A stretch of 64,000 nt of DNA, from NCBI GenBank assembly GCA_964016885.1, contig OZ024755.1, positions 5,704,001 to 5,768,000 of the forward strand. The letters run 5' to 3'. This DNA is from Eledone cirrhosa. Taxonomy: Eukaryota. Below, in pieces: positions 3,764 to 42,708 of the stretch. A program made the position numbers and the translations under genes. Numbering within the stretch: position 1 is the stretch's first letter; every line of letters begins with the position of its first letter. The notes beneath the pieces are model-generated. The model made no database searches. It was not told the DNA's origin and saw only the letters and a program-made list of their open reading frames with translations.

Positions 3764-3906
3764 AACGAAGGAAGTGTGGCAAGGAACCAGGTGGAACATA
3801 ACGCGCTCGATACTTTGGGTAGTAGAGTGGGTAATAGGAAAATGTTCAAGACCCCTGACAGCTGTCGAAACGGCCGGAGCTCAGCCGTCGGGTTCCTGAC
3901 TCTTTT

Positions 3907-39485: not shown

Positions 39486-39489
<4 letters not shown>

Positions 39490-39693
39490 TATAAAAGTTT
39501 TAATATAGAAGAAGAGCTTCTACAGGACTAGAACTGTTTCATTCGTGAGAAATCATCAGGGGCTCCCTGATGATTTCTCACGAATGAAACAGTTCTACTC
39601 CTGTAGAAGCTCTTCTTCTATATTAAAACTTTTATACTCTGCTATATATTGGATACCTTACTGTGGTTACCTCCGATTCAACCCGGGATAAAC
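39486..39693 (+). mobile_element. Family H2 fold-back HHR element
   Basis: About 155-bp near-perfect palindrome (39486-39640) plus unique tail; each arm has CTGATGA-tttctcacgaat-GAAACAG...CTGTA-GAAGCTC; (TA)n flanks. Confidence 0.8.
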
Positions 39694-39875
39694 TTATATA
39701 TATATGTATATGTATATATCCGTGTGTGTATATATATATATATCCGTATATATATATATATATATATCCGTGTGTATATATATATATATATCCGTATATA
39801 TTCGTACATGTGTGTTTCAGCGTTTGAGTAAAATATATAAATATACAAGTGAAAAGGTGAACACACGAATAAACG

Positions 39876-39907
<32 letters not shown>

Positions 39908-40080
39908 TGTATGTATGTATGTATTTATATGTATGTGTATTTGTATCTATATATGTGGATATATGGGTGTGTATATAGTATAACATATATAATGCAACAT
40001 TAACAATTAAGGTTGTATAAGCTTGTACGTACATATAAAATTTCACACATACGCACATAAATATATACATACATATATAT

Positions 40081-40136
<56 letters not shown>

Positions 40137-40339
40137 CACACACATATATATATATTTATATATATACATATATACATATATATACATACATATATAAATA
40201 AATAAATACGCACACATATGTGTATATATATATACACACATATATGTATATATATATATATAAATACACACACACACACACACACATATATATAAATAAA
40301 TAAATACACACACATGTATATAAATAAATAAATACACAC

Positions 40340-40375
<36 letters not shown>

Positions 40376-40800
40376 GTATATGTATAAATATTCATATAAA
40401 TACACACACACACACATATATATATATATACACATATACATAAATAAATAAATAAATACACACATATATATATATGTATATATATATATATATGAATAAA
40501 TATACACACACACACATATATATATATACACACTTACACATGTATAGTGGATTATAGTGGATACACAAGTTAATCGATGATGTACCGGTCTATCAGGGGA
40601 ACAATCAATGATTGATTTGACAGTAACCGGCAAAGCACTATTTCCGACAGATGACAGCGCAATGTCTCTGACAGAAAATAGGGATCTTGGTGAAGTGTAA
40701 TAAGATGTAGTAAGACCCCATAATCCCTACCTGTAAGTTTGGGGGATATCTGATGAGAATCACCTGGAGGTAGCGTGTGGGTATATATATATATATATAC

Positions 40801-40885
40801 CTGTCGGGGTCTTACTGGTTCCTATTACCCACTCTACTACCTCAAGTATTGAGTACTTTGGTGCGTTATGGTCCACCTGGTTCCT
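40801..40885 (+). mobile_element. Family H3 tail in (TA)n beginning at ctGTC-ggggtctt
   Basis: Homologous to 3764-3860 (reverse) and 4601-4672. Confidence 0.7.
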
Positions 40886-40900
40886 TACCACATTTCCTTC

Positions 40901-40952
<52 letters not shown>

Positions 40953-41165
40953 TGTATATATTATTGGTAACGTGTAATGAATAATAAAGTAGTCTCTGCA
41001 TTAAAGTATCGAGTACCAAGTTGTATATTGTGGTCACGAGACATTCAACTAGAAACATCTTTAGTGCACTCCAGGGATCACTTTACCTGCTGTGCTAAAC
41101 TATTATGCATAGGGATCGACTATTATTAAGGTCACTTTATACATACACACATACTTTTATATATG

Positions 41166-41213
<48 letters not shown>

Positions 41214-41267
41214 CTCTCATATACTGTACCGATTGTCTTGTTATTTCTGTTTACCTTTTACATATAC

Positions 41268-41304
<37 letters not shown>

Positions 41305-41319
41305 AGTATGTATAGAATA

Positions 41320-41353
<34 letters not shown>

Positions 41354-41953
41354 CATATATATATATATACATATATACATACTTATATATATATATATAT
41401 ATACATACTAATATATATATATATATACATACTTATATATATATATATACATACTTATATATATACACATACATACATACTTATATATATATATGGAATG
41501 GGTGTATATGTAGGGTACGAAGAGGCAGAGTGGTGAGAACGTGGTGTAGAATACTTAGCGGTAAACTTTTCCACCTTCCGCACTCTGGGTTCAAATCCAA
41601 CTCGCAGTCAGCTTTGCCAGTGACTGTTCTGAGGTCGATAAATGAAGTACGAATCCATTACTGAGCTCTAGTCTCATTCTCACTCTACAAAGGTCGTCTG
41701 TGTTGTCCAGACCTCTGTTCCGCCAAGTTTTAAATACCCGAGACTCTGAGGGAGCCCCTAAGGGCTGAATCAGATTAGGGGTCGTATATATATATATATA
41801 TATCGATGTGTATATATACATATATATATATATATACATATCGATATATATCGATTGACGGGGAACAGAGGATGAAGTAAAGAGCAAGAGAGATAGGGGA
41901 TTTAAAGGGGATCAGTGTATGTGTGTGGTAATATTTATGACATAAGTCATACT

Positions 41954-41994
<41 letters not shown>

Positions 41995-41995
41995 G

Positions 41996-42188
41996 GTTTT
42001 AATATAGAAGAGATTCTACAGGACTAGAACTGTTTCATTCATTAGAAATCATCAGGAATCTCTGATGATTTCTAATGAATGAAACAGTTCTAGTCCTGTA
42101 GAATCTCTTCTATATTAAAACTTTTATACTCTGCTATGTATTGAGTACCTTACTTACTGTGGTTACCTCCGATTCAACCCGGAATAAC

Positions 42189-42190
<2 letters not shown>
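41996..42190 (+). mobile_element. Family H2 fold-back HHR element
   Basis: Palindrome 41996-42121 plus tail matching 39640-39690; (TA)n flanks. Confidence 0.8.
42010..42062 (-). ncRNA. Type I hammerhead ribozyme, family H2
   Basis: Minus: GAGATTC-CTGATGA-tTTC-taat-GAAt-GAAACAG-ttctagtc-CTGTA-GAATCTC; perfect 7-bp stem I, 4-bp stem III, GUA site. Confidence 0.8.
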
Positions 42191-42240
<50 letters not shown>

Positions 42241-42325
42241 GTAGGTCCCGGGTTGAGTCGGGGATAACCACAGTAAGTAAGGTACTCAATACATGGCAGA
42301 GTAAAATTTTTTTATTTTATAGAAG

Positions 42326-42378
42326 AAGCTTCTACAGGACTAGTACTGTTTCATTCAGATGAAATCTTCAGGAAGCTC
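42326..42378 (-). ncRNA. Type I hammerhead ribozyme, family H2
   Basis: Minus: GAGCTTC-CTGAAGA-tTTCatctGAAt-GAAACAG-tactagtc-CTGTA-GAAGCTT. Confidence 0.8.
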
Positions 42379-42388
42379 AGGAGCTCCT

Positions 42389-42441
42389 GAGCTTCCTGAA
42401 GATTTCATCTGAATGAAACAGTACTAGTCCTGTAGAAGCTC
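42389..42441 (+). ncRNA. Type I hammerhead ribozyme, family H2
   Basis: GAGCTTC-CTGAAGA-tTTCatctGAAt-GAAACAG-tactagtc-CTGTA-GAAGCTC; predicted cleavage after 42434. Confidence 0.8.
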
Positions 42442-42442
42442 C

Positions 42443-42485
<43 letters not shown>

Positions 42486-42509
42486 TATATATAGATATAT
42501 ATATATATA

Positions 42510-42708
42510 TAATTGATTCTATTTTTGGCACAAGGCCAACAATAAACCAGTGCATTACTGGTATTTTATTTTATCGTAAGGATGAAAGGCAAAGTTAACC
42601 TCGGCGGGATTTGAACTCAGAATGTAAAGGGCCGTAACTCTATATATAATTGTTTCTACTTTAGGCACAAGGCCAGCTAATACCCAGTGCATTACTGGTA
42701 CTTATTTT
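42510..42708 (-). mobile_element. Two truncated S1 SINE pieces in tandem
   Basis: ggcacaaggcca...cattactggta twice, plus ggatgaaaggcaaagttaacctcggcggg. Confidence 0.75.

Follow-up and report, generated by a model that had tools for sequence, protein, structure and literature searches.

Among Penelope-like elements (PLEs), a typical insertion consists of an inverted, 5′-truncated copy beside a forward copy, with a tail at one end (PMC8557442). The Hydra clade of these elements is defined in that source by the motifs RW[K/R], DKT instead of DKG, CxCx5C, CxxC and CxH, its members having an HHR near the 3′ end and a length generally under 3 kb, and one of them, Penelope-13_HM, is given with a 5′ inverted copy and hammerhead ribozymes (HHRs) listed on both strands. 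For this clade, PMC8557442 already reports truncated inverted copies, tails on one side only, insertion into (TA)n and HHRs on the two strands, and paired HHRs on opposite strands have been noted in PMC4209133. Craig 2021 (PMC8557442) names the origin of inverted termini in PLEs among the questions still to be answered.

The window analyzed here, a 64,000-nucleotide stretch of Eledone cirrhosa DNA containing 200 N bases, holds three short fold-back copies, found where the original prediction had placed them, at 39486–39693, 41996–42190 and 42241–42449, each within (TA)n and each with the tail on one side only. To describe them, positions in the element are counted from C3 of the CUGANGA core, which is set to 0. 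In copies 1, 2 and 3, the paired arms are 77, 68 and 68 nt long, align with 2, 3 and 2 mismatches, and end at -2/-5, -6/0 and -6/-6, respectively. Copy 1, of subfamily A, has an inverted arm on the minus strand (39486–39562, from about +70 to -2) and a forward arm on the plus strand (39563–39693, with the PLE tail at 39641–39693), both carrying a 3-nt CTT duplication. In copy 2, of subfamily B, the inverted arm (41996–42061, minus) runs from a site at +59/60 to -6, the A predicted as +1, and the forward arm (42062–42190, plus; tail 42129–42190) begins at C3. Copy 3, of subfamily C, lies the other way around, its forward arm on the minus strand (42241–42377, tail 42241–42315) being templated up to -6 and its tailless inverted arm on the plus strand (42390–42449) running from -6 to a site at +48 to +54. 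The two arms of copy 3 are separated by a self-complementary 12-nt filler (42378–42389) that is absent from native subfamily C upstream sequence and is likely a templated insertion that arose during joining. Copies 2 and 3 have a (TA)n target in common (42191–42240), where two insertions of different subfamilies lie tail to tail. Just downstream of copy 3 is an 84% direct repeat (42504–42571 and 42641–42708).

The claim that HHRs are present on both strands holds for the cores, which were found in six of six arms (39567+/39559-, 42062+/42055- and 42396+/42371-), but stem I is unbroken in only three of the six. Two of these are the arms of copy 3 (42389–42441, plus, and 42378–42326, minus), which, as predicted, contains two complete HHRs, and the third is the inverted arm of copy 2 (42063–42009, minus). 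Of the others, the forward arm of copy 1 has one C·A mismatch in stem I, while the inverted arm of copy 1 and the forward arm of copy 2 have lost the stem I 5′ strand at the junction. The type I assignment, with a CUGANGA/GAAA/NUH core and three stems, was borne out in the three unbroken arms. The variation among copies at N7 and in the stem II loop was confirmed, and stem II of the window HHRs has a U·U at its base, a feature also of Hydra HHRs in print (PMC8557442). Covariation in stem I is real for one pair, C-G versus A-T, which also divides the subfamilies of the parent element (A-T in 48 and C-G in 36 of 117 intact-core motifs), but the outermost G of GAGCTTC/GAGATTC derives from the junction, the native base being C. 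The fixed catalytic bases are weak evidence within the family, since the CUGANGA positions are 85–93% conserved in 168 distinct motifs, no higher than their neighbors, partly because junctions cut those positions. The proposed Rfam check gave no hammerhead family among the 150 of 200 window matches listed, which were hairpins and microsatellites only, below gathering scores, nor on 42384–42446 at E ≤ 10. Two more CUGANGA-like motifs flanked by (TA)n (40730–40785 and 41745–41785) both failed a scan for stems I and III.

The monomer HHR fold was predicted to lie 0.3–3.1 kcal/mol above the minimum free energy, and the isolated HHR to prefer a dimer through loop III (-35.8 versus 2 × -12.7 kcal/mol for the plus-strand HHR of copy 3) in which the cores stay open. 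Dimeric folding via loop III has been described for PLE HHRs (PMC4209133). The palindrome hairpins were predicted at -109 to -136 kcal/mol, and in these fold predictions the full hairpin would prevent the HHR from folding in read-through RNA. Because the short copies (stubs) lack a TATA box and the hairpin is predicted to bury the HHR, the ambisense HHR palindrome is likely a by-product.

A search of the 3.0-Gb genome with the HHR and tail gave 2,116 first-look candidates, 40 of which were scored. Among 30 loci inspected, several extend upstream into shared sequence, some fold back further upstream, and at one, L023, the tail continues into the start of an open-reading frame. A search for the parent element from this tail-ORF junction gave 605 candidates, and 20 longer stretches then yielded long frames, of which that of L078 is open over 758 codons and gives a protein of 713 amino acids from the Met. 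This single ORF carries a reverse transcriptase (RT) followed by a C-terminal GIY-YIG domain (YRDD at 347, IVY..YIG at 585), as well as RWR at 38, with R in place of the K of RWK, DKT at 116, a CxCx5C linker (CNCLNKETC, 566), a CxxC (CDLC, 666) and a CxH (CMH, 694). Pfam returned only a sub-threshold GIY-YIG match for the protein (E 0.2), and 1,188 homologs at E ≤ 0.001, mostly at about 40% identity, were obtained among 8,000 candidates scored. The predicted PLE link was thus found elsewhere in the genome, where the HHR and tail form the terminal repeat of a PLE with an RT/GIY-YIG ORF; in the window, tblastn detected no ORF remnant of the parent. The HHR also lies downstream of the ORF in L079, L033 and L066, and the parent measures about 2.4 kb from the HHR to the splice donor, or about 5 kb including the intron of L079. 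ORF-bearing copies (L036, L043, L049, L078 and L098) begin 7–16 nt above C3. The predicted (TA)n targeting is seen in 89 of 100 sampled tails, which are followed by at least 8 TA within 30 nt. By its motifs, HHR position and (TA)n insertion, we assign the parent to the Hydra clade of PLEs.

Each of the three window copies matches a different subfamily of this parent (A, B or C), subfamily C alone having 2,232 exact HHR matches, and the palindromes are almost certainly products of the autonomous PLE. Next to copies of the family there are traces of other elements. GIY-YIG fragments of another PLE type (IYVLTCSGC..YIG) directly adjoin family copies at L004:373-980 and L010:1-462, by nested insertion or template switch. 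Long frames of other retroelements lie beside PLE copies at L033:678-4145, L061:5139-6851 and L073:4639-6159, and include a 1,156-aa endonuclease-RT and a 507-aa RT with a C-terminal nuclease-like part, with motifs assigned by eye. Motifs of subfamily C and of a sister Hydra family, H1, also occur in short regular arrays with periods of about 1,060 and 257 nt (G000:C1:118475152-118477635 and C1:27009514-27010054). H1 has 13,053 exact matches genome-wide and an ORF 52% identical, and leaves stubs in the window at 40801–40905 (+), 3764–3861 (-) and about 4606 (+). It retains GAAAC, GUC and a stem III whose loop is palindromic, with no CUGANGA at the expected place.

Genome-wide, exact patterns were counted, which gives lower bounds with differing subfamily mixes, and reversed controls gave 0. 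The exact tail occurs 8,864 times. The fold-back junction, defined by both cores and a spacer of at most 16 nt, occurs 3,789 times against 0 in the reversed control and is not due to chance. The family thus contributes a minimum of 3,789 hairpins to the genome; where transcribed, these could, speculatively, be sources of double-stranded RNA. The proposal of a separate non-autonomous element is not supported, as the same HHR and tail run into the ORF leader (111 exact matches) and the HHR follows the upstream sequence of the element itself, with its TATA (5,026). Individual insertions were examined in a census of 100 copies, taken as the first exact tail matches of contig C1 (first 57.7 Mb). 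Subfamily B predominates in this sample, in which a few insertions (L085/L086, L145/L147 and L156-158) may have been counted twice. With inverted arms sought as far as -500, an adjoining inverted segment, the typical PLE insertion structure, was present in 62 of the 100 copies; two segments from the ORF end and one 17-nt match far upstream were set aside, leaving 59 inverted arms for analysis.

All 59 arms start between +30 and +66, and 56 of them at two sites, +46 to +55 (28 arms) and +57 to +60 (28 arms). Their other ends are also concentrated: 46 of the 59 stop in an 18-nt window from -12 to +5, 6 between +6 and +45, and 7 further upstream. The original prediction that the fold-back point always lies at the HHR 5′ edge is therefore right for most inverted arms and wrong for the rest, which end from +36 to -269. 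Tailed arms start at about +127, and of the 100 forward arms, 38 end in the same -12 to +5 window, 32 above it and 30 below it. In 40 arms that could be walked base by base, the last templated base is -5 in 13, -6 in 5, -4 in 5 and -7 in 2, with -12 or beyond in 7 and -3 to 0 in 8. HHR cleavage was considered as a source of the fold-back and rejected: it would leave 5′ ends at +39, and only 5 of 100 forward arms resume at +37 to +40, in the stem I 3′ strand at the predicted cut site, a count confounded by microhomology.

That the inversion arose per insertion was upheld, 45 of 46 hotspot junctions being distinct, and short fillers resembling nearby arm sequence occur at many junctions. The two arms of a copy also share copy-specific variants, as predicted, differing at 0.9 of 40 nt within a copy versus 2.8 between copies (38 copies), a similarity that fits one RNA or one source locus alike. 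In 20 of the 59 cases, the inverted arm reaches at least 10 nt past the 5′ end of the forward arm, and in 4 it has no overlap with it, which rules out simple snap-back as the source of these arms. The two arms were templated independently of each other.

Among distinct native upstream sequences, 11 of 12 in subfamily A, 28 of 36 in B and 7 of 8 in C have a TATA-like box that begins 29–30 nt above the A at -6. CACCC lies at about -58 in native upstreams, and CCAAT at -84 to -86 in A and B, while the sequence between these motifs differs among subfamilies. The A at -6 stands in an Inr-like context, with a full YYANWYY match in B and H1. From their arrangement, the motifs may form a working promoter with +1 at -6. 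H1 has the same layout, with 21 of 22 arms ending within 5 nt of its own predicted +1 and TATA-like boxes at -29/-31 in 13 of 17, in an arm set that is small, incidental and in part counted in both directions.

The same edge is a used 3′ splice acceptor. Thirteen precisely spliced genomic matches (about 10 loci) join an exon just after the stop codon to the HHR edge at -4 and then continue into the ORF, and they are rare compared with the 5,026 unspliced matches. In L079 (G000:C1:108468500-108475500, minus) and L254-L266, a 3′ UTR GT-AG intron ending at the HHR and spliced retrocopies were found; splicing alters stem I in the latter. The intron of L079 is 2,609 nt long and mostly TG/TA microsatellite, those of the family being 0.7–2.6 kb and microsatellite-rich, and a GTRAGT donor follows the ORF in 12 of 14 family ORF ends listed. 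At L222, an H1 copy has a possible splice donor after the ORF, and its exon end could pair with the strand after GUC.

For these insertions, we propose a two-primer run-off model, which as a whole we hold to be moderately likely; that two priming events occurred is considerably more probable. The RNA would start at -6, span the HHR, tail, ORF and intron, and end past a second HHR and tail. The endonuclease would cut both (TA)n strands, and each end would prime RT at a UA-rich site, one at about +127, giving the tailed arm, and the other at +48 to +60, giving the inverted arm; for an anole PLE in vitro, both target strands are cut and two RT start sites bound the tail (PMC11167929). On the 5′ copy of the HHR and tail, both cDNAs would run off the RNA 5′ end after 55–135 nt, and host end-joining would link the two cDNA ends head-to-head, leaving stubs unable to move again. 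Since the RNA would carry the HHR and tail at both ends, priming on the 5′ copy would yield strong-stop-like cDNA of 55–135 nt, and priming on the 3′ copy would yield the longer copies.

According to this model, the fold-back lies at one spot, probably because reverse transcription reached the start of the RNA and ended there. The most common last base, however, is -5 and not -6, so the model needs some trimming of the ends; in D. virilis, unlike in this model, the Penelope promoter lacks a TATA box and precedes the intron (PMC2377424); and the hotspot coincides with both a 3′ splice site and the end of stem I, either of which could cause the stop. We would give even chances to the statement that Hydra PLE RNA begins at the hammerhead, that priming on both strands leaves joined strong-stop-like run-off cDNAs, and that the start doubles as a splice acceptor. 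If true, the stubs would chart across the genome where transcription and RT begin, PLE inverted termini would be explained without an antisense template, and splicing at the start site would shorten stem I of the HHR in spliced RNA.

With the same parent and the same two primings, the stop could instead be due to the 3′ splice site, through a bound splicing factor or a splicing intermediate. The exact joining of the post-stop-codon exon to the HHR edge in the 13 spliced matches and the donor after 12 of 14 ORF ends are what this explanation expects, the intron of D. virilis Penelope likewise stops where helix I begins (PMC4209133), and the H1 edge also has a YAG. We nevertheless consider it unlikely, as arm ends take in intron bases (-5, -6 and -7) more often than they stop at -4, spliced copies read through the junction into the ORF, no common exon-1 sequence follows the arms at 37 junctions listed, and the spacing of TATA and CCAAT is left unexplained.

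Somewhat less probable again is an origin in the cDNA itself, in which a cDNA with the complements of both stem I strands stops and refolds, or in which one cDNA folds back and serves as its own template. PLE palindromes of the head-to-head kind have been interpreted in print as self-priming (PMC3846280), a proposal made for Adineta PLEs. Stem I does end at -6, and the five forward arms that resume at +37 to +40 agree with such a process, but the inverted arms in 20 of 59 copies hold sequence missing from their partner, four inverted arms do not overlap theirs, and the edge of subfamily B is not self-complementary. The same hotspot is moreover present in H1, which has no recognizable core or good stem I.

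The reading of the original prediction, a self-propagating, non-autonomous, retrozyme-like mini-element whose palindrome is copied as a unit, is very improbable and already largely refuted. Short copies do far exceed those linked to an ORF, with 8,864 tails to 111 tail-ORF junctions, and animal retrozymes derive from PLE terminal repeats (10.64898/2026.07.22.740005). On the other hand, nearly all hotspot junctions differ, so the dispersed copies have no one common structure, each type of stub has a matching subfamily whose native upstream region is long, and the window copies are not head-to-tail repeats and have no TATA box. An assembly or library chimera is scarcely credible: fold-back chimeras occur in some libraries, and no public-run contig covered copy 3 end to end, but the arms stop at element-specific sites, never take in flank and differ from each other, and public-run contigs (at most two samples from one study) show similar fold-back joints and loose ends.

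The two-primer run-off model draws its value from being testable. As a sequence feature, the locus is ordinary; what it offers is mechanistic and lies in the mechanism that can be tested, not in the ribozyme palindrome. What is new is that most sampled inverted arms of the present family stop at the 5′ edge of the HHR, with a conserved TATA box about 30 nt above it, and that this edge is a used splice acceptor. A tie between the PLE fold-back point and transcription start was not found in the open-access literature searched. The insertion events of the family number in the thousands, are young and independent, and have fixed points of start and stop; together with an intact ORF, they make the model directly testable.

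Compared with described systems, the family is closest to the Hydra clade (Penelope-13_HM, Penelope-1_NV and Hydra-1_oBim), sharing a single ORF of about 2.1 kb, RW[K/R], DKT, CxCx5C, GIY-YIG and (TA)n insertion, and its HHR follows the same pattern, ctgatgat...tgaa and acag...ctgt-a (PMC8557442). The HHR of Hydra-1_oBim has a different sequence, and a text search of the Craig 2021 supplement gave no match to three motifs of the present family. Unlike the Hydra entries described, the present family has an 8-nt loop III with a palindromic CUAG and a 3′ UTR intron of 0.7–2.6 kb, and the accessible text of PMC8557442 describes no fixed fold-back point for the clade.

Poseidon_Ac (PAc; Frangieh et al. 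2024, PMC11167929) belongs to a different clade, but it too cuts both strands in AT-rich DNA, its tail lies between two internal RT start sites, and its HHR adjoins the pLTR-ORF junction, as it does here. The present family has three start sites and a tail of about 70–80 nt that lies before the ATG; the stop position of the cDNA and the formation of inverted copies are not addressed for Poseidon_Ac in the available text of that paper. Penelope of Adineta vaga (PMC3846280) shares head-to-head junction palindromes, a tail on one arm, and a putative TATA and Inr in its pLTR. Its palindromes were explained by self-priming with an antisense strand as template, whereas here the arms that exceed their partners point to two primings on sense RNA. 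D. virilis Penelope shares an inverted pLTR with a one-sided tail and an intron whose 3′ boundary is the 5′ end of HHR helix I, but it differs in having a TATA-less promoter upstream of a 75-bp intron (PMC2377424 and PMC4209133).

Metazoan non-LTR retrozymes (PMC7229834; 10.64898/2026.07.22.740005) likewise carry a type I HHR and are PLE-related, and in one of their HHRs, HHR_Amex2, helix II is known to have a U·U mismatch at its base. Retrozymes are head-to-tail tandem units giving circular RNAs, whereas the present stubs are head-to-head single units with unique junctions. The three palindromes are thus pieces of an apparently new family in a described clade, leaving the insertion shape already described for it.
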